Shown here: positions 16,469 to 64,000 of the stretch, piece after piece
Layout of the letters: every line of letters starts with the position of its first letter
How positions within the stretch are numbered: position 1 is the stretch's first letter
NCBI RefSeq assembly: GCF_000143415.4
Contig: NW_003314348.1
Span: 376,227-440,226 of the forward strand
Length of the DNA stretch: 64,000 nucleotides
Source: Selaginella moellendorffii
Lineage: Eukaryota > Plantae > Lycopodiophyta
Reading direction: 5' to 3'
Notes under the pieces: model-generated
Databases searched by the model: none
Seen by the model: only the letters and a program-made list of their open reading frames with translations
Told to the model about the DNA's origin: nothing
Translations under genes and position numbers: made by a program

Positions 16469-18609
16469 GGGATTGTCAGATGGCTGGTGCAATGGTTGGT
16501 ATGACTAAGTGTTTGTTGGTCTTACCACATTCATTATGTTCTGTTAATTGTTGCTTAAGTTAGTTCTGATAGATTAGGATGTTATTTCTTTTGGGTAATA
16601 CATTTGCGAGCATTTTGCTTACCAGTCAATGATACTTAGTGTTCTTTGAGTTATCTTTTGTAAGTTGTTTAGCATACTATCTACAACCTTCAGTAGTTAA
16701 GTTTTATCATTATGTTTCCTTGATAATATACTAGCTATTGAATTTTATAGAATGGTGAATCCTATATTTACCAACTATAGTGATCTTGGTGGTTTCTCTA
16801 CTATATTACTGGTTTATCGGATGATAATTTACTTAGAATATTTTTGTGTTCTAATCTAAGATATGATCACTGATAATTAAGTCTTTAAGATATCATTGTC
16901 TCTGACTTTGATATAGTCCATATATTGATCTTTGAGTTTAGGCCAGTATAAGCAGACTGGCTTCGACATTTCATGTGCATGTTGAAATCTTTAGTCATGG
17001 GGTAGCTACTGTTGACTGGTCACATAACCTACTTCTTTGTCGATGTTCCTTATTTCGTTAAAAGGGCGTGACCGTGTAAACAACTCTACCTACCTATTTA
17101 CAATAGTCTATCTAAACCTTACTGACGGGTTTGGTTTCTTTGCTCAGGAGGGTTGGGGCCTCTGGCTTCTCTCTCTATACCACCTACGGGCAGGGGCGTA
17201 TCACACTTTTGTAGCTGGATGACACCCAGAGCAACAAGGGTGGCTGACTCCATTAGTCATTTCCTTGTCGACGATGGCCGGAAGGTGTCTGAGTTAGTAG
17301 CGCATCCGCGTTAGACAAAGAGGTTACCCCTAACTCATTTAAGTTGGTGCATTTCTCACATAGTGTGAATACCGTGAACTTTTTCTAGAGTTGTTTCCTT
17401 GGCGGTATTCTAGACTCGAGTATGCATCGACGAGGACGTCGATCTTCCCAAGGGGGGGAGAGTGTCATGAATGTGACTTCAGGTATCGAAAGATACTTGT
17501 CAACCAGTCCTTACGGGCACTCTTTTCTTACTGCCACGATGGCAGGAGGTCGGTATTGTTAGTCCCTTTTATGGTCTCCACCCAAGCTAGTTGAGAAATT
17601 GGTCATCGTGTGTGCACTTGACCAAATGAGCATAAGGACAGAATTCCTATATGCTATTTGTCAAGCATACTTGACCTGGTTAGAGAAACTCATTCGTTGA
17701 CTTGCACTTGCTAGTGTTGGGAACCCCCGCGATATTGAGACTAGTCCCTCAATATTCGCTAGATGATAGCTTATTGTGTCTGCCAAACACCCTCGCTATC
17801 ATACCCTTTGTGTTGGTCTCATTTCGGTCCCAAGTGCTATTTATGGAAAGTGTCTAGATTAGCTCATTTGGCATATCTATAGAATGTGGAGATCAGCCTG
17901 AACACAATAGTGTTCGTCCCGTGTCCAAATTCGCAATCTAAGGCCATTCCATATTTAGTAAGTTTTAGACTTGTCCCAGAGACTAACTCCTGGTATTAAG
18001 GGAGGCTTGGGGTGAAAGCCCAAAGCGTGTGTCCCTCAAGGGGAGGTGGGGGGGTGGTTGTGGGGGTTTCCAAATGTATAGTAAGGATAGTGGGTAGGTC
18101 GAGCATGGCCGACCAACTTGAGGCATAGTCTAGCTCCCGCTTGCGTGCCTGTCCTTGTTCTACGTCCGGCTTGGGTGTAAGCCCAAATTCCCTTCCATGC
18201 TAGCTGGTGGAGTACCCATATCCTCACGTTAAGCCACCGGTATGCTGAAATAGTGCCAAGCTCCATTTGGCTCTGTTTTGCATGCTAGTCTTGGCATTAG
18301 GATGCTGGTTGCTCAAGGACTGTTCTAAGTCACTCTAGGCTCCTGTCCCTTCACTTTTTGGGCTGTATGCTCGGGAGTTGCTCCATGGTTCGGTTCCGTC
18401 ACTCCCTGGCTCCATGCTTGGGAGTTTGGCACCGTTCCTTTGTTTAGTGGCCCAAGGCCTTAAAACTCGGGTTCCACACCACTGTCCTTTGGACACGTGG
18501 CATGTGACACGTGGCATCTGTCACATGGCACAAAGAGGGTTTAGGTTCCGCTTCGTGGTGTTATCCTATGGTAAATCTAGGATAAAGGGTAAAAACCACG
18601 TGTGCTACA
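16469..18609 (+). mobile_element. Second family A element: 3' internal region, PPT and 3' LTR (17463-18609)
   Basis: Reverse-complement homolog of 549-~2650. [19 protein letters not shown] ends at 17462; LTR TGTCATGAATG...GTGTGCTACA. Confidence 0.92.
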
Positions 18610-21600
18610 GGTGGCATGGATGAGTGTCTCGCTTGGCTAGCCAATGTGAAGAAGTTCTTGGATGCTAGGGGAACTCCAGATGCAAAGGCTTTAGTAGCTA
18701 TTCCAATGGTTTTGCATGATGCGGGTCTTCGATGGTGGAATTGGCTTGAGGAGTCTCATGTTGCAGATAAAAAACCACCAATGTTTACCATGGATGAGTT
18801 TGAGGTTGCTTTTCATTTATGTTTTGCCCCTTATTACGACGTGGAGAATGCTTGTATAGAATTTCAACATTTCCAGCAAGGGAAAATGATGCTCGGGGAC
18901 TATATTGAGAAGCTTACTCACTTGATTAATCATGTTCCAACGAAGGATCCAGATCAAAACAAGTCCTACTTCATTGATGGCCTACATAGTGAGAGCATGC
19001 AGCAACACTTGCGTCATTCTCAGCCTACAAAGAGTTTGGAAGAGCTCTTTGATGCGGCTCGTCGACTTGACAATGACAAGCACAAGTCTCGCAAGCGTTC
19101 ACAGAGTCCTTCTATCGAGAATCGTCGTGATGATTTCTGTGGACACAAGGATGGGAACAAGCATCACAAGTTGAAGTCAGCGGTGACTACTTCGAATGCA
19201 AAGGGGTCCAAGAAGCAGAAGTTCTTTGTGAAGAATTATAGACAGGGTTGTCATCATTGCGGTGAACGTGAACACTACAAGGCTGATTGTCCGCAATTAA
19301 AGAACAAGCAGCAGGATAAGAAGAATGGCCAATATTCTTCTCACAGTAAGTCAGATACTAAAAAGTTGCACACTTTATAGCGTGAGGATGACGAGAACGA
19401 CTATTCCGGTCGGAGGAAGAGACTTTCAATTGTTATTCATCAACTCAACTGTGTGTGGAACAAGATGGAGCTCAAGGATACATGTGCATTAGCTTTAATG
19501 CTAGAGGGCATGTTCCATGGCGATCCAATGCAGATTTTACTGGATAGTAGGGGCGATGACAACTTTGTTTCGGCAAAGTTTGTTGCGGAGCATGGCCTGG
19601 TCACATGCGGAGTTCTTCCATACACAGTGGAAGGTGTAGCTACCTCTGCTCAGCATTTCGATGCTTGTGTCAAGGGGCTGGAAGTGTTGGTTGGCAAAAC
19701 CACACTTGTGGAGACTTTTTATCTTGCAGATATCCATCGTGTGGATTTCATTCTTGGGATGCCATGGTTGGTGAAGGTGGATCCAGAGATAAAGTGGAGT
19801 ATTAATTGTATCTCGCTAAAGTATGGTGGTGTTCAAGATGTGTGGTTTGGCAAGGGCGTTCAACCACAAGTTGTTATGCTCTCTACTACATCTTTGAAGT
19901 TGTCATAATGGAAAAGCACTTTCGAGTTACTTGCTGTTTGTTCGTGACTTAGGGGACCAAGGCACGTGTGGGGGAGAAGTAGCAGTACAGGAAGTACTTG
20001 ATGAGTTTTCTGATGTTTTCCCATCTGAACTTCCCATGGGTTGCCTCCGTTACGAGGTGTGGAACATGGGATTACATTGGAGCTGGGGATACGGCCAATT
20101 TACTGGCATCCATTTTAGTTAAGTTATGCGGAGGAGCAAGAAGTTCAATGACAAGTCAAGGAGTTACTTGAGTTTGGATTTATTTAGCCAAGTAAGTCTC
20201 CATTTGGTGCTCCAGTCCTGCTTGTGAAGAAGAAGGATGGTTCAATGTAAATGTGTATTGACTATTACGCTTTGAACAAAAAGACAGTGAAGGATAAGAT
20301 GCCGATGCCACGTGTGGATGATATCCTAGACAAGCTTGGTGAAGCACGAGTGTTTACCAAGATTGATCTAAGGAGTGGATATCATTAGATTGCAATGAAT
20401 GATGCATCTATCTCCAAGATGGCATTCAACACAAGCTTCGGACATTTTGAGTTTACAGTTATGCCGTTTGGTTTGACGAATGCACCAGCCACATTTACTC
20501 GGTTGATGACGGAGGTATTTGGGCATTATCTTCATAAGTTTGTGAAGATTTTCTTGGACGATATTCTTGTTTTTAGCAAGAATATGGAGGAGCATAAGGT
20601 GCATTTGCACAAAGTTCTTTTGTTACTCCAAGATAACAAACTTTATGCGAAGAAGAGCAAATGTGAATTTGCAAAGTCGAAAGTGGAATATTTAGGCCAT
20701 ATTGTGACATCTAAGGGTGTCAAGACAGATCCACAGAAGGTGGTTGTGATGGAAAATTGGCCTACACCAACTACAATGGCCGAGTTATGCAATTTTCTTG
20801 GTATGGCTAGTTACTACCAACGTTTCCAACATAAGTTTGCAGAGGTGGTTATTCCTTTGACGCAGTTGTTACGGAAGAATGTGCCATTCGAGTAGAAGAA
20901 GCCACAAAAAGAGAGTTTTGTGGCGCTAAAGCGATTGTTGAGCGAGACTCCAACCAATCGCATTGCTAATTCATTGAAACCTTACGAGGTGACATGCGAT
21001 GTGAGTGGTTATGCATTGGGAGGAGTTCTCATGCAAGAGGGACAGCCTATTGCATATGAGAGTCGAACTTTGAATTCTGCGAAGTAACGCTATTCCACAT
21101 ATGAGCAAGAGTTATTCTCTATTGTTCATGCTTTGCGGACATGGCGGCACTATCTTTATGGTGTAGTGTTCATGGTGTTGATAGATCACAAACCACTTGT
21201 GTATCTTTTCACACAGAAGGAGTTGAACACTAGGCAAACTTGTTGGATGGTCAAACTCATGGAGTTTGGGGAGTTTCCTATTGAGCATCGTCCAGGAAAA
21301 TCAAATGTGGTGGCAAATGCTTTATCTCGTATTCATTATATGACAACATTACAAACACGATTTTGTCATCATTTGAGTAAGGTGATCAGTGAGTTTGGGC
21401 AGTTGGTTGGGCATGCTCAAGCTTAGGATGTTGAGATGGCCTCTTTGCGAGACCAGATGGAAGCCCCTTTCTCATTGGTGGATGAGATTCTTTACTACAA
21501 TGGCCGTGTATATTTGCCAAGGGTGGATGCGTTACTTACTCACGTTTTATTCCACTATCATGATCGTCTAGAAGCCGGTCATTTTGGGGGGAAGAAGACG

Positions 21601-22761
21601 TATGAGTTGATTAAACGCAATTTTTATTGGAGGAATATAAAAGCTGATATCCTCAAGTATTATAACTCATGCGAGTTTTGTCAGCAGGTTAAGGTGCCAC
21701 GGGAGAAGATGGGGGGACTTTTGCAACCTTTATCTATTCCTCAGAGCCATTGGTGTAGTATCTCTATGGACTTCATCACTTGTCACCATGAACATAGAGG
21801 CAAAAGGAGCAAGTATGGGTTATAGTGGATCAGTTGACGAAGTATGTGCAGTTGTTGGCTCTTCGGAAGACTATCATTGCCTTAGACTTGGCTACGGTTT
21901 ACTTGGAGAAGGTTTTTCCGGATTTTGGTTTGCCGGAGGACATCATTAGTGATCGAGATTCAAAGTTCACTAGTGGATTTTGGAAAAGCTTTGCAAAGGC
22001 TATGCAAGTGACTTTGAAACTCTCAAGTGGAAATCATCCTCAGACGGATGGGTAAACCGAGCATGTGAATCAGGTGGTGGAAGATATACTACGTTGTAGC
22101 ATTGGTCAAAGGCAAGGATAGTGGGATTTATATCTTCCGTTGGTGCAATTTTCTTACAACAATAACCAACATAGTGGAACCAAGCTAAGTCCTTACTTTG
22201 CCATGTTTGGAAGGCATCCTCGAATAGCAGTGGAGTTGGGATTGCATTTGAGTAAGGACCTTTAAGATAAGCTTGATTCCGAAACTACTGATCTAGCCAC
22301 AGAATTGGATGATGATTCTGGTGGTGTGCAAACAGAATTTGCAAGCAGCTCAGGATAGAGCGGAGAAGTTTGCCAATGAGCATCGCCAATTCCGGGAATA
22401 TAAGATGGGTGATCTCATTTTTGTGCAAGTGATATTTCCATCAAGTAAGCGGGGGAACACTTTGGTACCTTTACGGATAGGGAAGAATGATAAATTTCTC
22501 ATCAATATGCTGGTCCATATGAAGTGCTAGAGCGCATTGGTAAAGCGGCTTATCCGGTGTGGCTGCCAGCTGGGGTGAAAATTCATTCGGTATTTTATGT
22601 CAGCCAGTTGAAAGGTGTACTATCTCGGAGTGACGGGCCCAATGCCTCTTTGATGTATACGGTTGTGGAAGATGGACCAAGAGCTTAAGCAAGGTTCCCC
22701 AGAAAGGGTGATCACTGGTACAAGTCATTGGGACAAAGACTTTGTTGGGGGGGGGAAGAAT
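18610..22761 (+). mobile_element. Ty3/gypsy gag-pol, pseudogenised (gag-CCHC, protease, RT, RNase H, integrase, GPY module)
   Basis: CHHCGEREHYKADCP knuckle; LLDSRG protease; MPFGLTNAPATF and FLDDILVFS in RT; H..H..C..C and SDRDSKFTS/HPQTDG in integrase. Several in-frame stops. [18 protein letters not shown] at 22747-22761. Confidence 0.95.
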
Positions 22762-46019: not shown

Positions 46020-46769
46020 CAAGGCCCAAGGAATGGCTAGTATATTTTAGTATATGTTTGTTACTCATGCTTTGATTGGTGCTTCATCTTTGTGAACATT
46101 GATTATTAGTTATTTTTTTGAGAACCTCATGTATAAATTAAGTTCCTTGACTTAGAAGTGTATTATAAAACAGTAATAGATATAAATAGTAATGGGATTA
46201 TGGCAATTAATATGTGATTACACTAGGGAGCATTATGTATTTATACATGGGTTGTGGTAATTAATCTAAAAACTGTAGCTTATATATAAAAGCAAGATTA
46301 AAACCAATTTAATAGCTATCAAAATCCTATACTTGATCATCCCTTCTTCTCAGAAGAATGGAAAACAGTCAAAGTTCTCTAATGAACAAGCCAAGATTTG
46401 AAGGAACATTAAGTAGTAATGGATCTATAGATGGTGTTAATTGTTCTTAATTCCTTTATATAAAGTGTTTAAACTACTATATATCCATAATTTTTGGAGG
46501 ATCAGCCTATTGGATGTCATATCAAACTTTATAAACTTGCAACATTTAATATAGTTTTGTGAGACACAAAATCCCTAGGCCCCAAAGTGGAGCCGAAAGG
46601 CTGCCACGTGGTAGTGGCTGACGTGAAAATCAAACGAGCATAACACATTTGGATTAAAAGTTCTGACTTGAAAGGTCGAGAGCGGAAGTGAAACTCTCAA
46701 CGACGTGCTCAAGGAACAAGCACGGAGCAAGTAATAAGTGAGTCTCTAAAAAAAAAGGGACACAAGAGG

Positions 46770-47200
46770 ACCCGAGATGGAGTCTAAGATGGAGTCCGAG
46801 AAAGACTCGAGTTAGAGTCTGAGATGGACCCAAGTTGGAGTCCGAGATGGAGTCCGATATGGACCGAGATGGAGTCCGAGATGGATCCGAGATGGACCCC
46901 AGTTGGAGTCCAAGATGGACCTAAGTTGGAGTCCGAGATGGAGTCCGAGATGGAGTCCGATATGGACCGAGATGGAGTCCGAGATGGACTTGAGATGGAG
47001 TCCAAGATGGACCCGAGATGGAGTCCGAGATGGAGTCTGAGAAGGACCCGAGATGGAGTCCGAAGTCGAGACTGAGACCAAGACTGAGACCGAGACCGGG
47101 ACCGAGACCGAGACCGAGACTGAGACCGAGACCGAGACCGAGGCCGAGCCCAAGCCCGAGTCCAAGTTCGAGTCCAAGCCCGAGTCCGAGTTCGAGTCTG
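46770..47200. repeat. Hexamer/12-mer minisatellite inside family B LTR (GAGATG-GAGTCC, GAGACC, GAGTCC blocks)
   Basis: Directly visible tandem units. Confidence 0.95.
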
Positions 47201-47289
47201 AGAGGATGAAAGCCCAAAGTGTTCGTCTCCCAGACCCTGGGGGGTTTGGTGAGCTCTAAAAGTATAGTAATGGGGAGGACTATAGTGAA

Positions 47290-47385
47290 GCCAGTTTGGC
47301 CAGGAAAGGCCAGTTTGGCCAGGAAAGGCGAGTTTGGCCAGGAAAGGCTAGTTTGGCCAGGAAAGGCTAGTTTGGCCCAGGAAGG
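47290..47385. repeat. 19-bp tandem repeat x5 (GCCAGTTTGGCCAGGAAAG)
   Basis: Five copies here versus two in the homolog at ~63140-63175. Confidence 0.9.
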
Positions 47386-48865
47386 CTGTACCCAGTGTTG
47401 GGTGATGAGCTGCCCACTGGGAAGTCCAAGACTAGAGTGAACACAAACAAACAAGTGGGGTAGCTTGGTGAAGTGTTCAAGAGCCAGCTCTAGTTCCCCT
47501 AAGAGATCAACTGGCCGATGCTCTCAATCCAAGTGTGGGTGGCATTACCTACTTGGATACCAGGTGTGGCTCAATAGAACCTCGCTCTAAGCCCATGGCT
47601 AGAACACCCAAAGGTGGAAGGCATGGAGAGTATCTAGGAGGCCTGCGTAGGGCCATGGTGTTCCAAAATGTTGTCCCAAAGTCTCAGACTGTGGAAAGGA
47701 AGAGGAGTAGGCCTCTGGTGTAGTGACCAAGGACATAGTCACACGGCAAGGAAGTTCTAGAGGGCCATGGGACTTAGTGGTCAGGCCTATGGGCCTTGAT
47801 TCAGTGGCAGTGTTGGCAAACACGGCCATGGACAGAAAGGGACTTGGTAAGGACCGGAAAGGAGGTATTAGGGAAGGCTATCCCCATGTCTGCGGGCATC
47901 CTAAGGATGCTAAGGAGTGGATCTGAGATGACCACTCATGGATGGAAGACCCAATCTTGGAGAGACAGGGTTGCAATGCAGGTGGCTTTGGACCACCGAT
48001 GTAACCAAGGTAAATGGGCATGGCCTAGCGTAACGGGCTGGTATGTTGGTGGTACCTTGGGTCCCGGTCATGGGATCGGACACGTGGAGCACTTGGACCA
48101 AATGCAAAGGTTGAGTGGCAGGGATGCCATTATCGGGGCTAGCAAGCCCAAGTCCGAAATAGCACTTATGGAGGTTGTGAGTGAGACTCTTCCAAGTGGT
48201 CAAAGGTGTGGTTAAGTGACTAAAGTAGAAAGGAAAAATTAGTCGCTTAAAGCTCTATTTCGTTAAAGTGGGATTTATTCAGTAAAATGGGACTAGGTAC
48301 AAATTTTCAAGTATTTGAAAATGACGTGAAATTATATGTTTTTTGTCCAGGGGCTAGACATATCTGGGGCATGGTGACTAGCGCGGTGACTTTGTGTCCA
48401 GACTGAGTCCATCTGGTTGTATAAAAAATCTCATTGTCAAGGTGAACAAGCCGAATCTGAAGCTAAAGAAGAGCGATGGCATGCGTGCACACACTATTTG
48501 TTTGTTCATTGAGCGTGTGGTGAGCTTTCCAAGATGAACGTCATTCCTATTAGCCAGACATATAACTTAATGGTGAGAACATTTAGATATTATTCAATGT
48601 TATCTTTTTCTAACGAATCTAATTGTGAAGGTGTAGCAAGAGGCATTGCTAGTCTGGAGAAGTCATTTAACTCATTTGACCCTTAGTGTATTTTCATGAA
48701 ACTAAATAACATTCATATTATTAAGGAATTTCTCTAGTACCTTTTTTTTACGACATAGAGGCTTGCATTTCTTTCAAAGGTGATTTAGTAAAAGGCCTGA
48801 GGGCACATGCCATTCTATTTCTCAGACCGGTATTAAGATATACTAGTGCAAAGGGCCACATGCCA

Positions 48866-51800
48866 TCACGCCTCCTCTGATTCAGATTCGGATTGTTCAC
48901 CTTGAAATAAAATACATTAGAAACTTAGTAAAGGAATATTAATGAATCTCACCTTGAACCCGGGTTATGAATGCTCTTGCTGCATCTCTTGCATGGTCTG
49001 GCAAGGTGATGGTGGCACTCTGCTTCCGCATCCAACCATGCACAACATTATCCACCGATATGCTCATGCTGGGATCCCTTGGATTCAGCACCCATCTCTT
49101 TTCTAGGCAAGCTCGTTAGATGGTCAAACTCATAGAGTTTAGAGGGTTTCCTATTGAGTATTGTTTGGGAAAATTGAATGTGGTGGCAGATACTTTATCT
49201 CATGTTTATCATATGACGACATTACAAACATAGTTTTGTCGTCATTTGATCAAGGTGGTCAATGAGTTTGAGCAATTGGTTGCACGTGCTCTGAATCCGG
49301 CTTCTTGTTCCTCGGCCCACAATAGTGATCCTCAACATCGTTATCTGTCACTGCATTTCCAGAGGACATTGTTCCGCTACTATCTGGTGCTCTGGGTTCT
49401 GGCCAAAAGGACTCTTCCAATTCTTCATATACAACCGGCCCATTTTGGATAGCAGATATAATCTTCTCCCAGTATTCGAGCAAAGGCTTGCACCTCTTAA
49501 AATAGGATTCTCCACCAAACACCAACCCCCTCTTCCAGAAGGCAATATGCTGTCTAATCCCGGCCACTATACTTTCCTGGTCTTTGAGTCCATCCGGGTG
49601 CATCGGCCGTGGGGAACCCTGAGGAATCATAGGTTCCCCAATTATGGGATCTCTCTTGAAGAGTTCAATGCCATCCACTGGCAGCCACACTGTGTCCCAT
49701 TCTCTCATCTTGTACCTCATCACTGGAGCACCGTCACGCATGCTGAAATGAAACTGAAGAGGCTTGGAGTGGCCAATCAGCATTTCGGATCCGTCCCTGA
49801 TGTAGCCTCTTACAAACCCCTTAATGTCTGGAACCTCTGTCACAAGTGCAGCTTCAACAGTGCCTTTGATGCAATTTTGGAATTCATCGTAGAGTTGTGG
49901 GAGGGTGAGGACATTGGATCGCCGGAGGGACTCTGCCAGGTGACTGAACATGGCATCGACGTCTTCATGAGTGTGCCCAACCATGAGAAAGCCAAGTGTA
50001 ACCGTTTCAAATATGCCTTTGGCAACAAGCATCGCCAAGTACGCGAAGACGTACATGTTTTTGTTCTCACTGCCAGCATTGTCTGTTTGGAGCAGAAGAT
50101 GGGGTGGAAGGCCACATCGGCCGCAAGAACTTCCTTGAGATTCTGCTTTGTTTGGATGAGGCTGTGCATTCACCGGGCGACCAGCCTCGTCGGAATGACA
50201 TGAGGCCTCACGTGATAACCCTACAATCTGACGGCCAACATATTCACTAGGATGGCATGGGGCCCCACGCGATACTGCAAGCCTTTGCTCCTCCTCCAGC
50301 TGAACCCTGTATGGGGTTCGATCGACAAGGGCCTTATGCAAGGGTTGGCCGTTCAGCTCAGTCTGCGCACTTTGCAGAGACCTTAAGTGTTTTGCTAAGG
50401 ACGCAATCATCATGTTTGCACCCCCGCCACCCCATAGAGGCACAAAGAAGTTCCCATAGTTCTGGGCACCATGCCCATGAGCGATTATGCCAAACAGAGA
50501 CACAGGCAGCTGCATGGATGAAGAGATTGCCTTGGGGGCAGGATTGAGTCGAGGTAAGCACGTCTTTTTCTGATCCATTTTGTCGTGGATGATGCAGAGG
50601 TAAGAGTCAGGTCTCTCCATGGAGAGAATCCTGTTATGATAATATGCAGTCCTGCAGCTTCTCTGCTCGATGTTGTGGTCGAGCCGCCTTCTAACCAACG
50701 TCTCTCGCTCTTGAGCGCTGCAAGAATTCTTCGACAAAGCCATTTTGATAGCAGTGCACTCGTCACACTTTGAAAAGCTGGAGTACTTTCCTATACTCAC
50801 ATCCCTGAACCTGTTGCTCCACAATCTACTAAATCTAGATTGGCTCAGCTTCCTATAGCCATTACTCTGGAGTTCCCGATTCACATCTTCCAATATGGCC
50901 CCCTTGGTATACATGGAAGGGAGAACTCGTTGGGTGTCTCGTGTTCCATCTTCCAAGAGGCGGGTTTTATGTGGTTGCTGCTCGCTACATGTCTCGACAA
51001 ACCTCTTGAAGATTGCCTCTCCATATACAACATGACCCCTGGTTTTGTGCGTACCGTCGTTCCCATGGACTGCCTGTTGAACCCTTTGTTCCTCGAACTC
51101 AGTTTTGATTCTGTAGAATGTGGTTCGAGGGACTTCATAAATGATTCTCCATGCCTTCATGCAGACCAAACCCCTCTGGAAGACCATGCCCCCCACCTGA
51201 TGTTCTGAAGCATCAACAGATGACCGTAATGCCTCATACACAAAATTGCGAGCTGCCTTCCAGGACAATGTCTTGTATCTTGCTCTCTCCTCTTCAATAG
51301 CATCCCAATCAGCATGTTGACAGCACCTCCTCTTGCAACAAGCAACTGTCGAGACCATTCGAACCTCCATCGCCATTTTCTGCCTTTTCGGTTCGTTGCT
51401 CAGATCCCTTTGGCTGCGCTGTAGGAAGGTGTACTTTCTTTTCCCATGAAGAGATGTTCTGTCATCAGTTGTAGTGGTGTTTGATTGTGAATCCTTCACA
51501 TTCTCAAACACTAAATGCCTCAATTTCCACCGCACAATGCTTCCAATAGTCAGACTGTTTTCTTCTATGTCAACAACCTCTAAAATCGCAACTCCAATAT
51601 CATCCCAGCCCAATTCTTGATTAGCAACCGCATCTCTTGGATCGACAACTGTGGCTAAGCCCTCAGCTACCACCTCCCCCTCGGGGTTGTTTAGAAACAC
51701 CTTTGCCTGAATCCATGTAGCACGGTTCTTAAGATCCACGGAGGGAACATGCGTCGCACTTGCGTTGTCCCCAACATCTACTTTCTTCTGAAGATTTTTC

Positions 51801-52015
51801 AAGGCAACAACAACATTTACCCCGACGACTATCTCTCCTCGTTCAATAGCAACCACATTCCCATCGAAGACAGTCTCTACTGATACAGCAGCATTGCCTT
51901 CCCCAAGCCTTTGACAGTGTATAACAAAGTTCCGATCCATAGACACAAGGGTCCCTTTTGCAACTCTCTTCCCACCATTCAAAATGTAAACCTTTTCCCC
52001 AACCCTGAAGGCCAT
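48866..52015 (-). CDS. Sola-like (DUF7869-type) DDE transposase, C-terminus disrupted by a gypsy-derived filler
   Basis: 918-aa ORF with CCKRRCC, VCMKAWRIIY, HGN, FSKCDEC, IIHDKMDQ, LQTDNAGSENKN, FLMVGHTHEDVDAMFS. The native tail resumes at ~49100 (RWVLNPRDP...RVQ), intron 48901-48952, last exon GEQSESESEEA* (48866-48900). Confidence 0.85.
49103..49291 (+). mobile_element. ~190-bp Ty3/gypsy pol fragment (RNase H end/linker)
   Basis: Colinear with 21230-21418 (GATGGTCAAACTCAT...AATGTGGTGGCA...ACATTACAAACA...). Confidence 0.9.
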
Positions 52016-52380
52016 TCTGAAAGTGCAGAAAAGAAGTTAAGACCATACAAAAAATGATTGGAGAATGGCCTAAATCATAACATACCAAACAACCTAACTA
52101 GCATGAGGCCACATGCCATTATTCAAACATGCTATTGACACCCACATGAAATTTCGCATTCACAAAATTGGCATGAGGCCTCATGCCATCTTGATATACA
52201 CACAGCTGCAGGCAAGTAAAAACATACATGACAATACGCTAGCCATGAAATTGCAAGGGCCCAAGATGGCATGTGGCCTCATGCCATTTCTAAATGTGGT
52301 CCTAAACCATTCCATGGTGAACATACCAGGAAGCACAAGTGCCGAATATCAAGAGGAAGCGGTAGCCACACCAAAGACAG

Positions 52381-52452
52381 TGCCGCTCGCAACACCGCAA
52401 CTACTCGTAGCGCCGCTCGCAACACCGCAACTGCTCGTAGCGCTGCTCGCAC
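52381..52452. repeat. 30-bp tandem repeat (~2.4 copies) in the transposase leader
   Basis: CCGCTCGCAACACCGCAACTRCTCGTAGCG repeated. Confidence 0.85.
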
Positions 52453-53300
52453 AAACTGCCACTCGCATAAACTACCGCTCGCAATGGCGCTCGCAATGCC
52501 GCAACCGCTCATAGACGCATAAACCACAGCTCACAACGCCGCTTACACAAGCAGCGCTCACTGCGCTCAGCGGAACCAAGAACACGGCGCACAAAAATGA
52601 TAGACCTAGGAATGAGTTCGAGAATTCAAAAATAACACACGCTTGAACATCACATCAAATCCTCTGACAAACCAGATCTTATGATTCCTCTGACAAATTT
52701 CAAACTGAGTAGCTTCTAGACTTTGCTGTCGGAGGTTGAACTTTGTCACATCATGTCCTTGTCTCGATCCAGCTGTGCCATGTCAGTGATTCGAACTTTG
52801 CCATGCCATGTCAGCGATCCGCGCCAAGATTATTCGCCGTGTAAAGGAATAATTATGCTGTGTGTGTACGTCCATTTATGGCAATATAAGGCCACACGCC
52901 ATTCAAAGAATAATGCTAGTCGAGCATTTTTTGGTGCATTTTTGGGTTCAAAATTGCATGAGCCCACACACTATAAAGTTTACCTGTACCAAAAATAGAA
53001 ACAGCTTTATTTACTTGGGAATTTAAGTGGTTGAGGCGTACAAACACATGCCCTACTTACATTCATTTGGTTGCTTAAAATTCAAAAATATTATAAACCT
53101 TTCTTTTTGCATTTTCAATGTTTTCAATTATGGTTTTTGATTTTCGCAGGACCAGCCTAGTAATTTATTTGCATCCCGTCATGTTTATAGCTAGCTTTCG
53201 TTTGTCCCCTTCGCTGGCCTGAGATACATCTGCTCAGAATCTGCGTCTTACAGCATTTGCCCAGAAAGGGCATCTTTCTTCACGCAGCATTTGCCACATG

Positions 53301-53325
53301 TTTAGGGTTAGGGTTTAGGGTTTAG
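53301..53325. repeat. Short telomere-like / telo-box tract
   Basis: TTTAGGGTTAGGGTTTAGGGTTTAG. Confidence 0.8.
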
Positions 53326-54452
53326 CAATTCAGTAGCTTGATAAACATGCAAATACAGAACTTGATGCAAAATCCTTTGATATGTCACAATGCCCCTAGG
53401 ACCATAAACACATTTCAATAGAGAGGGTCCTTTCATTTCATAACTCCTTACGTAGATCTTGGTGAAACCAGAGTTAGTGAAGTTGGTTTCTTGTGATCTC
53501 GCATCTGATCATTGTAAGGCTCGTGTGGTCTCATGTGGTGTTCGATCGAGATGCTTCTTTGCAGGGTCATCAAGAAGGACATTGTATACCATTCTATAAA
53601 ATCTAGTTGCGATCTAACGGTTGGATCTCCAGGAAACTCAAAACAATCTCGCGCGTGTCAGAATATTCTAGGAATATACTCCTATGTGCTCCTGAAAATG
53701 GCATGCGACCCCATGCCATTCAAGAGATAACGCCAGATGACGCCAAGCATTTTTTGGTGCATTTTTTGGGATCAAAATTGCATGAGCCCACACGCTTGAA
53801 CGTCACATCAAATCCTCTGACAATTTATTTAGCTGAACATCTGGCATTTTTGGAAATATAAGATGCTTTGGAATATCCAATCATGCATGGTATAAATATA
53901 GCGAGGGTATTAAATGATATCCCAATCATGATCTTTCTTTTGGATTTCGCGTGCATGCAGTCCGAGGAATGATGACGTTGTGGATTTCTTTTGGATTTCA
54001 CGCATGCGCGCGCCGATCCAGAAATTAATGGTGGCGCCCAAGTCCGAGGAATGATGACGTGGCGGGATTACCAACCGTCGTGACATTTCGCGCATGTGAG
54101 GTTAGGTTTTGGATTTTGCTTCGTACTCGCGCTCGCATCGTGCTCCCACTCGCGCTCCCACTACTCTACAGGTTTCTCGTGTGCAGCGGCGTCCACTTGC
54201 GCTTGCATCACACTCGCGCTCGCATCGCGCTCGTGTGCATCGGCGTCCACTTCAAGACACACCCAGTTTGTAACTTCGCCGCCAACTCCGCCGCCCACTC
54301 CGCCACCCACACGCAGCCCACTTGGCGTCCCGGGAGATTTCAGCGCCACTCTCCAACTGTAAGTGGCAGAGTAGCCTTGCTGCTACGATCCGCTGCACAC
54401 ACAGTGCACATTCGCCAGCGAGTCCGGTTGTCACGCCTCCATTCGGCTTCAA

Positions 54453-57400
54453 ATGGTAAGTCTTTTAGGCCAAGTAGAAAATGGCATGAGGCCACATGCC
54501 ATTCAGTAGCAACATTGGCATGCACCGATTGGGCTCTCGAGTGCAGTCCGGTTACAGATGGCGTGAAGCATCACGCCATCTTAGGATGCAGCCTCAAGAC
54601 ATCTGATGCAGTGGTGAATGGCGTGTGGCCTCACGTTATTTCCAGCTACTAGCTTTTCATCTGTCAGCTCTAATTGTTGTGCATTTCTGAACAGGCGAGG
54701 AATTGCGTTCTTCTTCCAGCCACTGTCAATGTGGATGCAGAGAAGGGGGAGGAGCTCACCAGTTGGACTTTCGGGATGGAAGGCGAGGATCTGAGGCTGT
54801 ACAACACAGATGGTGGGAGAAAAGAATGCATGGGGATCCTCATCCAAGTGACAGACACTCCATGCAGTTCCATGCAAGAATATGGACTGGCACTTGTGGT
54901 AGAGACAGCGTCTGCCTTCAAGATCCACCTTGCACATCCTAGCGGCTTCCCGGAGGGGGGCAGTGGCTATGAGGAATTCCTAGAGGGAGCTAGGGAGAGG
55001 TTGTCTAGGAGGCCCACAATTTCAAAGACGCTGCGGGTCTATGAAGATCACATGGAATCCACGGACCTCACCTACGGCGATGTTCAAAAACTATATTCCA
55101 ACATTGAGCCGTTGAGAGTGACTCCAGTTCGCGAAGCAAAGGGGAAGGGGGTCGATCTGGAAACTACCTCGAAGCAGAAAAGGGTGGTCAAGCTCAAGCC
55201 GACGTCCGACTCTCCTGCTCCAAAAAAGAAGCTACTCAGTGATGCCATTGCCTCGGGTTCGAACACTACACCCACCAAAAAGAAGAGCCGCAAAGAGCAG
55301 AAAGAGCAAGAAGAGGCAGCAAAAATCGTCGCAAATAATAGTACTTGTTACTATTCCAACAATGTATATACAATCGACGTGAGCCGTATCGACATCCAAA
55401 GCAAATACAACCACAGGCTAGTATCTGATGAGTGGGTGGAGAAACTGAAGCAGAAGATGCTGGCAAGTCCAGTAACACCTGACATTGCAGACGTGATCCC
55501 CTACTACCGAACAATGAAGGGCGAGACGAGGTTTCCAGACTTGATCAATAGGAAGGTGTTGGACGATCAGAACATCCGGTTCTATGCCGTCTCCGGGCAG
55601 CATTCTAGCTTGGCGATGCAAGAGATAGTTGTGGATATTATGGTGGGCGAGGAGGTGAAGAAAGTCTTCAAGACAAGAGTTGTCCGCCTGATAAAAGGCA
55701 ACTCGCCCCTCCGATCTATCATATACATCTCCCACGCGCAGAATGTCAAGCAAGAAACGTGCTACAAATCGGGTCTGCACGAGACATTGGCACGAACACG
55801 GAAGCTCTGGGTTCAACTGAAGAAGCCACAAAAACCAGGACAAGGACGTGCACTAGCAACTAGCGCCTGGCAGGTAAGCCTCGTTGCATGTGGCATAGCA
55901 TGTGGCCTCACGCCATTTCCATTGCAGGAATTCTCGAGTCTTCTCTCGAAAACACTGGGGGTCAATGACACACTCAGCATCCATAACATTCTACTCGCGA
56001 CAAAAGTTGTTTTTGACAAATGGGTAGATGTGCTGAGGAGGTACCATGACGGGGAGTTGCCAAACTCAATGGGTGTGGAGGACGGCCGGAAGCCCAATGA
56101 TTTGAAGCTCAACGCCTTGCGTTTCTCGCGGTCTCTAGACGACGACGACCTTCTGACAGTGGCTAATGCTCTTCTACGTGGTGAGGTTGTCTTCAACAAG
56201 ACCAAAATGACTCCCGGCCATATTGTGACATACGAGGACTTGTGCACGACTCTGAGAGCTCGTGCGCTATTGAAGGATTGGATCTTCGAGCAAGTGGCCG
56301 TGGCGAGGGTGAGCATCGACACCACGCAAGAGATGATGGAAGCGCTGGAGTTGTCAAATGAAGACATCGACGAGTACGTGAAGGGGGCCCCCAAGTTCAT
56401 CGATCTGCTGCGGGATGCCACGAAAAGTAAAGCTGAGAAGTTGGATCAGTATCCAAATTTCATTAAGATTGATGTCGACCGCCGGCTTCAGAAACAGCTC
56501 GACCCCGCAGCAGAGGCCTATCGAGAACCTTACCGGGTATACTTGAATTCGGATGAGGATCAAAGGTGGAGGAGCATCGTTTCCCGCGGAGATGAGCAGG
56601 TCAAGAACATCTTTTGTGTGATGGACTTCACAAACGAGGAGATCACTCATGCAGACGAAGTCAGCTCCATCATTGACTTAATGGTGGGACTTGCGGAGGT
56701 GGAATCTTCAGTCCACTATATGATCTACGACTCCGAATCCTATCACAAGTTCTGGAAGGCCTTGAACGAGGTGAAGGCTCGGTTGAAAGGCAAGGAGATG
56801 CGGGAGATCCATGGGATAATGGCTAAGAAGAAGATACCGACGAATGTCCGCATCTTCACACTCGCCCTTGTTATTGGTCCTGCAGCAGAGTGGGACTGGA
56901 GTGACTTCTCAGCTTCGTTCGACAAGGCCAATCGAATTGATCTGAGGGAGGTCAATTTACCCGTGCCTGAGGAACTGAAGACGGCTATGGAGCTTTCGAA
57001 TCCAAAGAAAGCTCCAGGTGCAGCATGGGAAATGCTCAGCTGGGTCTTCAACGCAATAGCGGGTGGGTCATCTGCTTCCGACTCCAAGGGCAAATGCGTT
57101 GTCGAGTACAACTGCGGCGGACTATTCTTTCGAGCCGCACTACTCAAGGGTGTCCCTTGTGTTGCGGTGACAAACTCCATTGAAGAGGTGACTTCAATGG
57201 AGCATATAATTACAGTTGCCAAAGAAAAACAGTATCTTCTCTGTGAACCTGGTGAGTACACACTTTAAGTTTAAATGTTATCTCACAAGCTCTGTATGCA
57301 GGAGCGTGGCCACCCCCAGATGCTGAAACGGCGTTAACAGCTACTGTTGAAGATACCCATGTTGGGCCGAGCTCACAACTTGCACAAGGTAAGGTCACAT

Positions 57401-60075
57401 GAGGCCTCACGCCATTTTGATTATAGATCGTTGTGAATATTCAGACACGAGGACTGAAAAGCGCACTGGTGGCGCATCGAAGAAGGACAAACAGACAAGC
57501 AATAGGAAAAAAGGAGGTACAAATTATATTTGCAATGGCGTGTGGTCTCATGCCATTCCTTGCAGAAGAAACTTCTTCAAAGGCAAAACAGGCAAGCACC
57601 AGCCAAGCTCAAACTGACAGTGGTCATAAAAAGTGAAAGCACGTTGGACAGTCGTCGAGATCAGAGGCGTTTGATTCGAAAAGGAAGAAGGGCAACGAAA
57701 AGATGATAGGTAATGCCTCGCGGTTATGGCGTGTGTGCTCATGCCATTCATTGCAGATCAAGGGCTGAGTGAAAGCAGGCAGTCACCACCTCATGACTCA
57801 GATTCCTATGGCGGACTCCCCTTCCCCAATCTCAATGGAGAGGTACAATGGATGAGGGAAGCTTTTCAAGGCAGGGCCACGTTTTTCTCATCTCGTCGTC
57901 TTCGAAGGGTGCAAGAACGTGCAGAAACCATGTTAAGACAGTCGGGTGAGGATACGGTCCTAGGTCACGCACTAAAACAAGCTATGGATGTCTTGTATTT
58001 TGAGATGGAGACTCGGCCAGATGATTTTCCCAAGATGGTCCTGGAAGAACAAGCCATCCAGCCTGAGCAGCCTATGGAAGAAATGCAGGAGGGGGATGAG
58101 GAGCCAGAGAAAGATAATGAGCAAGAAGAGCAGAAGGACGAAGAGGAGGACAAAGAAGAGGAGGACAAAGAAGAGGAGGACGAAGAGGACTTGGATGGTC
58201 CTCACAATGGTGACGATCACAATAACGACGACGACGATGATGACGACGATGGCCAGCCTGAGGTGGCCAAAGAGCGGCGGAGGAAGGTCATACAAGACAA
58301 ACCATCAGGTAAATAATAATACATCCATTCCTAACCTTTTACCATTTCTAACATTGTCCATGTAGGTCGCAGAGCAAATGGTAAGTAGAGATTATTCAGT
58401 TGAATTTACAAACTCTAGCCTTTAGTGTCGAGGAAGGATAGTGCCAAGCAAGGGTCGAAACGTATGTCCAATCCTTCAGAATCAGCAGTGCGCTCAAGTG
58501 ATATCGGTCCTAGTTCCTCAATAGCAGTTGATGGTAAATACAGTATAGTCGATTCAATGTGCTAATGAGTTTGTTTTTAGTAGCACGGGAGGATACCATC
58601 TCAATCGAAGGGAGATATTTGGACATGCATATGGATCCGCCAGTGGACTCTACTTGGCTGCAAGAGTCATCAGAGCTGGTGGAGGCTACTATCCATATCA
58701 ACGCCAAGCAAGCTGACCACGCTCCACTTGATGCTGCCCATACCACTGAGTCAATCTTGTCCACGTATCCAACTGACGGTGACCAGGCGCCATTAGACCC
58801 ACATGAGGCCGCCCCAGCCGCCGAGCCGGTCGTATCCTCATTTCCAATAGACTCAACGTGTGCCCAATCGTCTGACTACGCGCCGTTGGAACCTCCCTAC
58901 ACCGCCCCTGCTGCTTGTTCGGTCATGTCCACTTTGCCAACGGAGGCACCAGCTGAAATGGCGTGTGATCACACGCCATCAAAACCACCCCATGCCACTG
59001 TTGAGCCAGTTGTACCAGAGTCTACAGCTGAAATGGCATGTGCCCACACGCCATCGGATGCGATTGACCCCACATTGCAGAGGAGAGTATTTCCGCCCTT
59101 CACGTTTCCTCGACCAAAACCCTCTCAACGACCATCGAGAGCACCATTCGCTAATATTGTAGATGGTAAAATTGACTTGTACCATTTTTTATGCTGACGC
59201 ATTTTATTTCAGAGTCACGGCGAAGGTACTGTATCGTTTTTGATCTGAACGGTGTCCTTTTCTCCCATGAGCGTGGCTCGTCCTCGAATGTCATTGCACC
59301 CTCCAAAGCCTGCGGTCGCAAGTTGGTCAAAAGAGACAGATTCACATTAATCACACGGGAGAAACTGCGGGATCTAATAATGACCATGCGACACTTAAAA
59401 CAGAGGGCCGGGTTCAATTTGCAATTGGGAGTTTGGACATCCATGATGCGCCACAATGCATTAACGTTGCTACAGATGATGCACGATCAGACGCGAGTAA
59501 TATTACCATTTGACTTTCTCCTAACGCAGGAGGATTGCTTGACTATGGTCCATGTGAGGGGTAGCAAGCCCATCTTCGTCAAGCCAGAGGCTGTAGTGAT
59601 GAACCGGACTGCTAGCTCAAGTGAAATCCTCATCATCGATGACTCGCCGATTAAAACTGCAGCGAACACGCACACATATGCAGTGCACCCCATCTCTTGC
59701 AGTATGGAAACTAGGGAGAAGAAACCGTATGTTCTGGGGGACCTTGCAAAACGGCTTGGAGCGATGGTGATAGAGAACCGGCCAGTCCAGGAGGTGGCTG
59801 CAGAAATCAACCAAATGGCAGATGGAACGGTATATCAGAAGCCATTTGATCGGACAAACACCAGTCATCATTTATGGCATGTATATTGTCTAGCCAAGCA
59901 CTATCCGCATCTCCATAATCTGCTCAACCGGATGGGTTCTTCGACCACTGAACATGAGCGTGGACGTATTAGAGAAGAGATGGCATTACTATTGGGTTTA
60001 AATCCTGATAGTGTGGAGAGTGATGAAATTCCAAGATTATTGTATAGGCGTTGGAGGCAAAAAATAACAGTCTGA
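54453..60075 (+). CDS. Transposon accessory protein: ParB/DGQHR-like + degenerate N4/N6 methyltransferase-like + acidic linker + FCP1/SCP-like HAD phosphatase; multi-exon, one in-frame TGA (57634-57636)
   Basis: Long exon ORF 54694-57251 with in-frame 54-bp intron 55874-55927. Downstream exons link through ~45-56-bp phase-1 GT-AG introns (57252-57301, 57389-57444, 57517-57565, 57710-57756, ...) to the last exon 59213-60075. Motifs NHR..W.EKL..K, FYAVSGQHSSLA, GKCVVEYNCGG..AALLKG, IVFDLNGVL, GVWTS, LIIDDSPIK. The 5' micro-exons are uncertain. Confidence 0.72.
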
Positions 60076-60570
60076 GATGGCATGTATTTATTTAAAAATG
60101 TAACTTATTATGGCATGGTGTTCCATGCAATTGTATTAATATTAAAAGACAATTCTTTGAGAGGATTTGCATTATACTAGAAGTGTTACAGCATGTTATT
60201 GGAAGTCTACGAAGTTGTTTTATTAATAATGGGAAAGTAAAGATTGAATGGGGACTTGGGCTCCACCTAGACTCGGAGCAACTGAGCCAATATTAAAAGG
60301 ATGGAAAGAAATTGGACGACGATGACAAGGAGAAGAGAGAGGTGAAGCAGTGGCAGGGGGAGGAGAAGTGATTGAGTAGACATTTCCTTGTTTAAAATAA
60401 AATGGCATGTGCCTCAATGCAGTTGAATTTTGTTATATTTATATACTATATAAAGGTTTGGAAACCTTATTTTACAAGTGGGATAATGACAATTCCCACT
60501 TTAACGAAATAGAGCTTCTTACAAATTTCTTCCATTTAATAAAGAGCCCCTTAAACAAACATACCATAAA

Positions 60571-61392
60571 TGTTGCAAATGTGACTTTGGGTATTGAAAA
60601 ATATTTGTCGGTGAGTCCTTACAATACTCTTTCCTTACTGCCATGACAGCAAGATATTGGTACTGCTAGTTCCCATCATCAACCCCTCTTGTTTAAGTGT
60701 TAATAAATTGGATTTAACATTTGTACTTAGCCAAATAAACATAAGGTACGAACTTCTATGTGTTTCTAGCTGAGCATTCTCGGTCTAGCTTTTAATTCTT
60801 TTTTGCTCTGTCTTGCACTGGTTTGGCAAGAACCCTCACATATTGAGTCTAGTCCTTGAATATCATTATATGATAACTTACCGTATCTACCAAACACCCT
60901 CGCTATCATGCCTTTTGTGTTAGTCTCGTTTCGGTCACAAATGCTATTTATGGAAAGTGTCTAAATTTGCTCATTTGGCATATTTACAGAATGTAGAGAT
61001 TGTCCTGAACACAATGGTGTTTGTCCCATATTCAAATTCACAATCTAGAAAGATTCCAAATTTAATAAGTTTTGAGCTTGTCCCACATACTAACTCTTGG
61101 TATTGAAGGAGGCTTGGGGTGAAAGCTCAAAACATGTGTTCCTCATTCCTCAACGGGGGGGGGGGGGGGGGGGGTTCCAAATGTATAGTAGGGATAGTGG
61201 TTGGAATGCACATCCAACCATTTAAAACATTAGTTTGGCTTTTGCTAGGTTGTGTTGATCTTTGTTTTGCTTCTGGCTTGGGTCTAAGCCTAAGCTCCAT
61301 ACTGCTCTATTCAATGGGGTACCCTCTTCCTCACATTAGGCCACTGGTATTCCAAAATAGTGCCAGAGATCATCTAACACCATTTTGCGTGT
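60571..61392 (+). repeat. Older truncated family A LTR
   Basis: TGTTGCAAATGTGACTTTGGG... colinear with 17463-18290 at lower identity. Confidence 0.85.
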
Positions 61393-62267: not shown

Positions 62268-64000
62268 TGTAAGCAACTAAATTTTCCATTCTACTTTAGT
62301 CACTTAACCACACCTCTGACCACTTGGAGGAGTCTCATTCACAACCTCCATAAGTCCAATCCAGGACTTGGGACTTGCTAGCCCCGAGAATGGCATCCAT
62401 GCCACTCAACATTTGCACTTGGTCCAAGTGCTCCACGTGTCCGATCCTATGACCGACACTCAAAGGTACCACCGACATGCCCGCCCGTTATGCTAAGGCC
62501 ATGCCCAATCACCTTTGCCACACTGGTAGTCCATTACCACTTGCATCACAGTCTTGGCTCTCCAAGACTAGGCAAACCATCCGTGAGTGGTCATCTAAGA
62601 TCCACTCCTTAGCACCCTTAGGATGCCCACCGACAAGGGGAATAGCCTTCCCCAATATCCCTCTGTCAGTCCCCACTAAGTCCCTTTCTGCCCCTGGCCG
62701 TGTTTGCCAACACTGCCACTGGATCGAGACCCACAAGCCCGACCACTAAGTCCCACAGTCCTCTGGGACTTCCTCACCACACGACTGTGTCCTTGGTCAC
62801 TACCCCAGAGGACTGCTCCTCTTCCTTTACACAGTCTAGGCCTTTGGGACAACATTTCGGAACACCATGGCCTTACGCGAGCCATCTGGGTACTCTCCCC
62901 GCCTTTCGCCTTTAGGTGCTCTAGCCATGGGCTTAGAGCGAGGTTCCGTTGAGCCACGCCTGGTATCCAAGTAGGTAGTGCCACCCACACTTGGACTGGG
63001 AGCATCGGCCAGTCGATCTCCCGGGGGAACTAGAGCCGGCTCTTGAACACTTCACCAAGCTACCCCGCTTGTCGGTCCGTATTCACTCTAGTCTTGGACT
63101 TCCCAGTGGTCAGTTCATCACCCAACACTGGGTCTGGCCTTCCTGGGCCAAACTGGCCTTTCCTGGCCAAATTGGCTCCACTGCAGTCCTCCCCCTACTA
63201 TACTTTTGGAGCTCACCAAACCCCCCAGGGTCTGGGAGACGAACGCTTTGGGCTTTCACCCTCTCAGACTTGGACTCGGACTCGGACTCGGACTCGAACT
63301 CGGACTCAGACTCGGACTCGGACTCGGTCTCGGGCTCAGCCTCGGTCTCGGTCTCGGTCCCAATCTCGGTCTCGGTCTCGGTCTCGGTCTCGACTTCGGA
63401 CTCCATCTCGGGTCCATCTCGGACTCCATCTCAGACTCCATCTTGGACTCCATCTCGGGTCCATCTCGGACTCCATCTCGGGTCCATCTCGGACTCCATT
63501 TCGAGTCCATCTCGAACTCCATCTCGGGTCCATCTCGGACTCCATCTCGGACTCCATTTCGGGTCCATCTCGGGTCCACCTCGGACTCCAACTCGGGTCC
63601 ATCTCAGACTCCACTTCGGACTCCAACTCGAGTCCATCTCGGACTCCACTTCGGACTCCAACTCGGGTCCATCTCGGACTCCACTTCGGACTCCAACTTA
63701 GGTCCATCTCGGACTCCACTTCGGACTCCAACTCGGGTCCATCTCAGACTCCACTTCGGACTCCAACTCGAGTCCATCTCGGACACTTCCACGTGTCATG
63801 TGTTGGTCCTTTTTGGGTCCCTTTTTGGAGCCTCGCTTTTTGCTCGCTTCGTGCTCATTCCTCGAGCACTTCTTTGGGAGTTCCACTCCCACTCTTGACT
63901 TTTCAAGTCGGAGCTTTTGGTCCAAACGTGTTACGCTCGTTTGGCTTTCGCTTCGGCCACTACCACATGGCACCCTTCCGGCTCCACTTTGGGGCCTAGG
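62268..64000. repeat. Family B LTR, inverted relative to 46558-48249; runs off the window end
   Basis: Begins TGTAAGCAACTAA; reverse-complement colinear with 46575-48249, including the hexamer arrays. Confidence 0.9.

Follow-up and report, generated by a model that had tools for sequence, protein, structure and literature searches.

Dispersed 22-bp palindromes in a Sola-like transposon of Selaginella moellendorffii as putative operators for an element-encoded ParB-like protein

The DNA analyzed here (hereafter, the window) is a 64,000-nucleotide stretch of the Selaginella moellendorffii genome (contig NW_003314348.1, positions 376,227 to 440,226). It contains a 12,264-bp Sola-like DNA transposon with two divergent genes, one encoding a transposase and the other an accessory protein, termed the helper below, with a predicted ParB-type domain. 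Within this element there are 22 sites, plus one half-site, of a 22-bp palindrome with the consensus ATGGCRTGWGSSCWCAYGCCAT. The element and its genes are as follows:

48250..60513, Sola-like cut-and-paste DNA transposon, 12,264 bp, damaged copy; delimited by a pair of terminal inverted repeats (TIRs), a 4-bp duplication, and end-to-end coverage by many near-identical contigs
48246..48249, forward strand, left target-site duplication, CTTA
60514..60517, forward strand, right target-site duplication, CTTA
48250..48273, forward strand, left TIR, 24/24 bases identical to the right TIR
60490..60513, reverse strand, right TIR, 24/24 bases identical to the left TIR
48945..52015, reverse strand, transposase gene (DUF7869; Pfam PF25273, E 1.4e-42), 3' end inferred
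52017..52326, reverse strand, inferred 5' untranslated region (UTR) intron of the transposase gene, from splice signals alone
54453..60075, forward strand, accessory gene, a spliced model of 11 inferred exons and 10 introns encoding about 1,640 amino acids (aa), with one premature stop at 57634
54456..54694, forward strand, inferred first intron of the accessory gene, from splice signals

The palindromes were located by scanning the window with a symmetric weight matrix, seeded with 13 near-perfect sites and called at a score of at least 12. All 22 sites reaching this score lie between 48476 and 60423, and none occurs among the 51,692 window positions outside the element, in agreement with the original prediction that about 20 such palindromes are confined to the transposon. 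That prediction also placed every site within 48250-60517; none indeed falls outside, but the element itself ends at 60513, since 60514-60517 is the target duplication. Shuffled versions of the element (200 Markov-3 shuffles) contained a mean of 0.14 sites at the same threshold (maximum 2). Leave-one-out scores for the sites range from 12.2 to 35.1, compared with a maximum of at most 8.5 outside the element, and this scoring also revealed the additional half-site at 52881.

The spacing anticipated as nearly constant is in fact fixed, with a 6-bp spacer at every site. When up to two mismatches are allowed, this spacer yields 17 sites; spacers of 0, 2-5, 7, 10, 12, and 13 bp yield none, and spacers of 1, 8, 9, 11, and 14 bp yield a few matches, mostly overlapping true sites. 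The center had been described as freely variable, but G10/C13 are retained in 39/44 half-sites, and at positions 9/14, A or T is found in 35 of the 44 half-sites, while the two positions are complementary in just 8 of the 22 sites. The position pair 6/17 is occupied by A.T (8 sites), A.C (8), G.C (3), G.T (2), and one other combination, and the purine and pyrimidine at these positions vary without covariation (Fisher p = 1); arm covariation, which had been put forward as a test, is thus absent across copies, as for a double-stranded site. The sole regular variation within the arms is that of CG and TG, present in 16 and 27 of the 44 half-sites, respectively. G10 and C13 are kept even though they could not pair in a hairpin, being two bases apart, and positions 9/14 are rarely paired, a combination that fits two half-sites on double-stranded DNA. 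Sequence flanking the sites is hardly more similar between sites (12.2/40) than between random pairs (11.6), the shared flanks of two site pairs (58958/59033 and 52953/53777) being local duplications, and even a 3-bp flanking repeat is found at only 1 of the 22 sites. The refuting possibility of a miniature inverted-repeat transposable element (MITE) with its own duplications was therefore checked and rejected, along with other mobile units: unrelated flanks and missing flanking duplications indicate that the sites are not such a unit, and they share no body. Given the fixed spacer, conserved center, independently varying arms, and unrelated flanks, the sites behave like double-stranded binding sites rather than hairpins or MITEs.

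The palindromes are placed within the element as follows:

48476..48866, palindromes 48476, 48792, and 48845, at the left end, downstream of the transposase
50195..50273, palindromes 50195 and 50252, within the transposase insert that is conserved least (residues 581-607)
52098..52287, palindromes 52098, 52168, and 52266, in the inferred 5'-UTR intron of the transposase gene
52881..53798, half-site 52881 and palindromes 52953, 53698, and 53777, between both genes
54481..54639, palindromes 54481, 54558, and 54618, in the inferred first intron of the accessory gene
55895..55916, palindrome 55895, in intron 55874-55927
57394..57747, palindromes 57394, 57535, and 57726, one each in introns 57389-57444, 57517-57565, and 57710-57756
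58958..59054, palindromes 58958 and 59033, in a low-complexity coding stretch of the accessory gene; a local duplication
60110..60423, palindromes 60110 and 60402, at the right end

These positions include the perfect 20-mer at 52169-52188, the four short introns, and the four coding positions (50195, 50252, 58958, and 59033) listed in the original prediction, all of which were found again. The inferred first intron of each gene contains three sites. Ten of the 22 sites are located in the 11 inferred introns, which make up 8% of the element (p 3e-6), with the proviso that four of these 11 introns had been proposed with knowledge of site positions; only 4 of the 22 are located in coding sequence, which makes up 64% (p 2e-5). 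Half of the accessory-gene introns (5/10) have no site. Three intronic palindromes (55895-55927, 57535-57565, and 57726-57756, measured to the intron end) leave 9-11 bases to the 3' splice site and occupy nearly half of their 47-54-base introns.

The accessory gene lies on the strand opposite the transposase, as do the algal ParB-methylase accessory genes. Using the introns originally proposed, no stop-free spliced model is possible in this copy. Intron 55874-55927 is backed by homologues in which the corresponding residues are missing or which stop at this point, and the remaining introns were drawn from splice signals alone. The following parts of the helper were delineated:

55361..55762, forward strand, ParB-type N-terminal domain with an SGQHS motif; predicted model, predicted local distance difference test (pLDDT) mostly 78-90
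55775..56500, forward strand, conserved helical region, a candidate DNA-reading domain; homologue alignment and predicted model
56525..57250, forward strand, beta-class amino-methyltransferase-like fold without the catalytic PP(Y/F); predicted model, low pLDDT
59227..59673, forward strand, NIF/FCP1-like phosphatase domain reading DLNGV, with its second Asp replaced; Pfam PF03031, E 4e-6, above cut-off

A full HMMER search of 1.84 billion representatives returned 16 matches to the helper, of which 14 were kept; P0100 and P0105 were dropped as homologues because their matches were driven by repeats. Word-indexed homologue searches with the helper gave no match. The structure model, built on 23 rows, has a mean pLDDT of 60.7 (33 for a single-sequence model), and its residues 15-148 match ParB 7bnk (Z 10.9, root-mean-square deviation [rmsd] 2.0 over 95 residues), with ParB, Noc, PadC, and KorB among the top 13 structural matches. 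Foldseek returned no match to the model in PDB at E ≤ 0.001, and sequence searches of PDB with the helper gave nothing significant. A helper homologue resembles fungal DUF3723 proteins by its features and ParB/DndB clusters by structure, below the threshold of the tool. In the SGQHS motif, G86 and H88 are invariant in 11 rows, and an invariant Arg follows 25 residues further on.

Residues 403-644 of the model match five beta-class amino-methylases, including MboIIa, CcrM, rotifer N4CMT, and PvuII, at Z 8.0-8.4, with pLDDT below 50 over much of this region, and there is no Pfam match for it. Active N4C/N6A methylases carry the catalytic motif (D/N/S)PP(Y/F) and an FxGxG motif; these read VMDFTN and EYNCGG in the window, and all five aligned homologues keep the Asp while none (0/5) has PP(Y/F). 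As the catalytic motif is missing, the fold is likely to lack methylation activity. NIF/FCP1 phosphatases carry DxDx(T/V), in place of which the last exon of this copy reads DLNGV. Judged by motif, then, the helper is probably neither an active methylase nor a canonical ParB of the type that binds cytidine triphosphate (CTP). Four S. moellendorffii genes (P0099 and P0115-P0117; 379-451 aa) match the helical and methylase-like parts and have no ParB domain; they are possibly domesticated or truncated helpers. This Selaginella homology, together with the dense genes and short introns of the window, suggests a lycophyte-like host. Neither viral nor prokaryotic contigs contained a relative of the helper, and viral contigs contained none of the transposase.

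Related loci were taken as the best 80 of 231 from a scan with the transposase (54 non-redundant). A blind count of palindromes exceeds that of shuffles in 10 of the 25 loci outside one large group (L035), and fifteen refined seeds gave palindromes of 17-24 bp, arranged in tandem at some loci and scattered through introns or coding DNA at others. At least two sites of the L035 palindrome, at kept positions, are present in 42 of the 80 loci and none in the window, and the window motif has four weak matches across 780 kb of related loci. Palindrome types track the transposase tree (27 rows). Three sister families (L018, L022, and L023) share an identical terminal word, while their palindrome arms differ in a mirrored fashion (AC/GT, AG/CT, and TC/GA); their transposases (L018, L022, and L023/L029) are 75-85% identical N-terminally and 86-92% elsewhere. 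At one mismatch, the word of each sister family is absent from any sister whose word differs, and L025 and L044 show a mirrored difference at one position. The 14-base terminal word of the window element is also found behind the transposase in L001 and L003. Shared ends together with differing internal palindromes indicate that ends and internal sites change at different rates. Further arrays with other words, behind the transposase or farther off, occur in L036 (3389-3560), L080 (4289-5743), and L019 (20717-21413).

Searches of the 80 loci with the helper exons of the window by tblastn and phmmer gave nothing credible, and only a profile gave matches. With it, remnants of helper genes facing away from the transposase were found at E 2e-8 in L062/L064 and at E about 0.01 in L071/L073, the latter reaching 2e-5 when the search was focused, and in each case the palindrome array lies between the helper remnant and the transposase gene, such that L073 repeats the layout of the window with a different palindrome. 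Pfam searches in six frames upstream of L023, L026, L045, and L057 gave no match. Several contigs start inside the palindrome array, and a helper beyond the contig break is therefore possible at these loci. An automatic search for TIRs plus a duplication in 35 related loci found no convincing element; in L023 the ends match and the duplication does not.

It is highly probable that the palindromes are sites for a protein encoded by the element, and the helper is the likely binder. Extending this by analogy, we lean, if only somewhat, toward the interpretation that the palindromes are family-specific operators for a dimeric ParB-like helper that acts against host silencing. The ParB-type domain would load a helper dimer onto the palindromes, each half-site being read by one subunit, presumably via the helical region that follows the ParB domain. 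Clusters in both first introns and between the genes would place the helper over both promoters, from where it may spread or recruit host demethylation, by analogy with VANC and TnpA. The methylase fold would serve as a DNA-binding or scaffolding part and not in methylation, and the transposase would read the element ends and not the palindromes. The dimeric, parS-like operator of the original prediction is partly supported, as it fits the predicted ParB fold in the facing gene, the different palindromes of related families, and the non-MITE nature of the sites. Whether palindromes differ among related families had been put forward as a test, and they do; the helper profile matches 4 of the 80 loci.

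Several observations weigh against this operator interpretation. The four loci matched by the helper profile correspond to 2 of the 54 non-redundant ones, and the other 76 of the 80 have no match. L023 has the terminal word at both ends and six palindromes, with no helper match in 5 kb upstream, and L025 has palindromes with no helper match in 5.4 kb upstream. Fifteen of the 25 loci examined blindly show no excess of palindromes, though most of these contain little non-coding DNA. Because every locus was identified through its transposase, this set gives no means of telling the helper and the transposase apart as binders. In 14 decayed copies of the L035 group, the sites are no better kept than their flanks (0.78 vs 0.81), including at G/C columns (0.74 vs 0.72). 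At six site positions (50198, 52098, 52970, 53708, 54566, and 54570), the majority of aligned contigs carries a base closer to the consensus; this speaks for the operator interpretation but is also expected from neutral decay of this copy. In the helper itself, some alignments of the helical region to ParB/Noc reach residue ∼312, at an rmsd of 8-13, and any helix-turn-helix there is putative. CTP-binding ParBs carry GxxR at the nucleotide-binding patch, where the helper has GQH.

A further reading of the helper, which we regard as quite unlikely, is that of a nucleotide-gated sliding clamp that reads a methylated operator. It is motivated by the CG/TG variation of the arms, given that thymine and 5-methylcytosine present a methyl group at the same place; the clamp would load when the host has silenced the element, spread over its 12 kb, and reopen it without methylating. 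If this were true, the mirrored changes among sister families would be the trace of a rapid arms race, of the lock-and-key kind, among the Sola elements of land plants. About as unlikely, and if anything a shade more so, is binding by the helper for movement or inheritance, through ParB-like bridging of the ends of the 12-kb element or repression of its own and the transposase promoters. Partition proteins and the repressor KorB both belong to the ParB fold family, and sites do cluster at both promoters and both ends, but single sites in four small internal introns suit coating better than end pairing. The main rival to the helper as binder is the transposase itself, which may read the palindromes, probably via N-terminal TnpA-like repeats, for self-activation or transpososome assembly, leaving the ParB-like gene to do another job. 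We consider this unlikely, although it has some points in its favor: weak Transposase_23 (TNP1/TnpA-type) matches at the transposase N-terminus (E 0.03-0.04, below cut-off), the palindromes of L023 and L025 where no helper was detected, and the precedent of TnpA and AtMu1 transposase, which are described as binding family-specific motifs and demethylating their own elements. These two proteins bind at termini, however, and the palindromes here occur throughout the element; moreover, terminal words are common to families with differing internal palindromes (L018/L022/L023; the window, L001, and L003).

The two readings that dispense with an element-encoded binder are both very improbable. RNA hairpins that tune the splicing or stability of both transcripts, as the original prediction allowed, would be in keeping with the folding of perfect sites at -10 to -13 kcal/mol and with the closeness of three sites, at 10 bases or less, to a 3' splice site. 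The absence of covariation argues against them, as do the sense-strand A.C in 3 of 8 mismatched genic sites, a would-be loop that is conserved and self-complementary, the intergenic position of several sites, and the lack of any Rfam match. Neutral origins (footprints of tiny mobile units, local duplication, or sites for host transcription factors) could account for the two site pairs with shared flanks and for the tandem palindrome arrays in several relatives, but the other flanks are unrelated and nearly free of flanking repeats, each family has its own word, and none is found near host genes in the window.

Natural counterparts of this design have been described. Sola1-1_Ec32 of the brown alga Ectocarpus has an opposite-strand gene with ParB-like and N4C/N6A methylase parts, proposed to bind and modify its own element, and it is similar to the window element in its length (>10 kb), a 4-bp duplication with a bias toward a final A, ends that begin with AA, and the opposite-strand ParB-methylase gene (PMC12477816). 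The window element differs in its missing methylase motif, its added NIF domain, its longer helper (about 1,640 vs 1,104 aa), and its land-plant host, and palindromes go unmentioned in the main text of that paper. The Plavaka element of the red alga Bostrychia has a ParB-like protein, PAG3, adjoining tandem inverted repeats that it is proposed to bind (10.1101/2025.02.11.637652). As outlined there, it shares with the window element a ParB-like accessory protein and inverted repeats within the element, and differs in its transposase superfamily, its tandem arrays beside the gene, and its 2-oxoglutarate (2OG) oxygenase partner domain. Anti-silencing is proven for VANC of the Arabidopsis VANDAL elements, where an accessory protein acts with family-specific motifs located in non-coding DNA, namely introns, intergenic regions, and the ends (PMC5735166). 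The window element is similar in having an accessory protein and family-specific motifs in non-coding parts; as described, VANDAL motifs are unlike these sites in being 8-9-bp non-palindromic tandem repeats, and the transposase is of the Mutator type, with no homology seen. For Spm TnpA and AtMu1 transposase, binding to clustered family-specific motifs and activation of cognate copies are likewise proven (10.64898/2026.08.24.746577), and that account differs from the arrangement here in that binding is terminal and the factor is either a transposase itself or a transposase derivative. Other sources serve as background only (PMC4738411, PMC5751038, PMC4455052, PMC8634313, and PMC10853773).

Compared with bacterial ParB/parS, Noc, and KorB, the helper and its sites have a similar predicted N-terminal fold and a dyad DNA site of similar size. 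ParB acts at parS as a clamp with specific palindrome binding and spreading; unlike bacterial ParB, the helper has GQH and not GxxR, no ParA partner, a fusion to methylase-like and phosphatase-like parts, and a spliced eukaryotic gene. No report of such a design from land plants was found in the open-access literature, although the Bostrychia supplement may describe its repeats further. With a ParB-methylase helper published for a brown-algal Sola1 element and a ParB beside inverted-repeat arrays for a red-algal Plavaka element, the window element is a land-plant counterpart of these recently proposed algal designs, one that would work like VANC or parS. The new points are a defined dispersed operator, a likely dead methylase with a phosphatase-like domain, and mirrored divergence between sister families. 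That a ParB-like helper marks or protects its own transposon has so far been a proposal from algal genome papers, and this element offers a 22-bp site that is well defined, membership in a young multi-copy family, and the mirrored sites of sister families as natural specificity controls. If the helper does counter silencing, plants would have an anti-silencing system made of bacterial parts, with no relation to VANC or TnpA, and with it a set of orthogonal protein-operator pairs.

The element is placed as Sola-like by the length of its duplication, its TIRs, and its core residues, the Sola1 features found being a 4-bp duplication, TIRs identical at 24/24 bases, and a DDD-type core. In an alignment of 18 rows, D478 of the transposase is invariant and D645 and D687 are present in at least 90%; we take these three residues to be the DDD catalytic triad, presumably a motif match to Sola. 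There are 51 transposase relatives, the named ones being mostly from mosses and a liverwort, and a Physcomitrium DUF7869 protein is 32% identical to the window transposase. No literature on DUF7869 was found among open-access sources. The duplications reported for Sola1-1 and Sola2-1 of Ectocarpus are also of 4 bp, in agreement with CTTA here (PMC12477816).

A single CTTA is present in the paralogous empty site near 62270, which belongs to another copy of the host repeat. In two runs, 147 and 137 contigs, respectively, diverge from the window at 48249. Contigs of four runs were aligned to the window, and all 30 bins were covered by three of these; in run X1, 33,362 of 66,015 aligned contigs are at least 99% alike. 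The family is clearly multi-copy and young, with depth not equivalent to copy number. Most differences between this copy and the majority are G-to-A and C-to-T changes in this copy, a pattern that decay of methylated cytosine would produce. In run X3, one contig has a different flank behind 60517, with CTTA again there, which hints at a preferred target.

The tail of the transposase gene is interrupted by a fragment private to this copy:

49103..49291, forward strand, Ty3/gypsy-like reverse transcriptase (RT)/RNase H fragment, 189 bp

This fragment is 82% identical to window positions 21230-21418, and the depth over the fragment is 3,000-90,000, compared with about 750,000 around it. A decayed Ty3/gypsy element at 18586-21700 has gag, protease, RT, and RNase H pieces with stops, and its RNase H resembles the fragment. 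The transposon sits at the edge of a repeat (46574-48249) with an inverted paralog at 62270-64000 (78% over 1.8 kb); this flanking host repeat is high-copy and contains tandem units of 6, 12, 19, and 35 bp. Another repeat, ∼0.8 kb long, has four copies in the window (60571-61391, 866-1685, 7156-7792, and 17470-18258) that are 72-78% identical. Midway between the divergent genes is a short plant-telomere-like tract (53301-53320) whose length varies among copies, and a similar tract is located in L022 (125-152), ∼1 kb upstream of the palindrome array. Both genes are preceded, close to the inferred transcription starts, by GC-rich short tandem repeats of the CTCGC type (52374-52543, 54186-54232, and 53956-54060).

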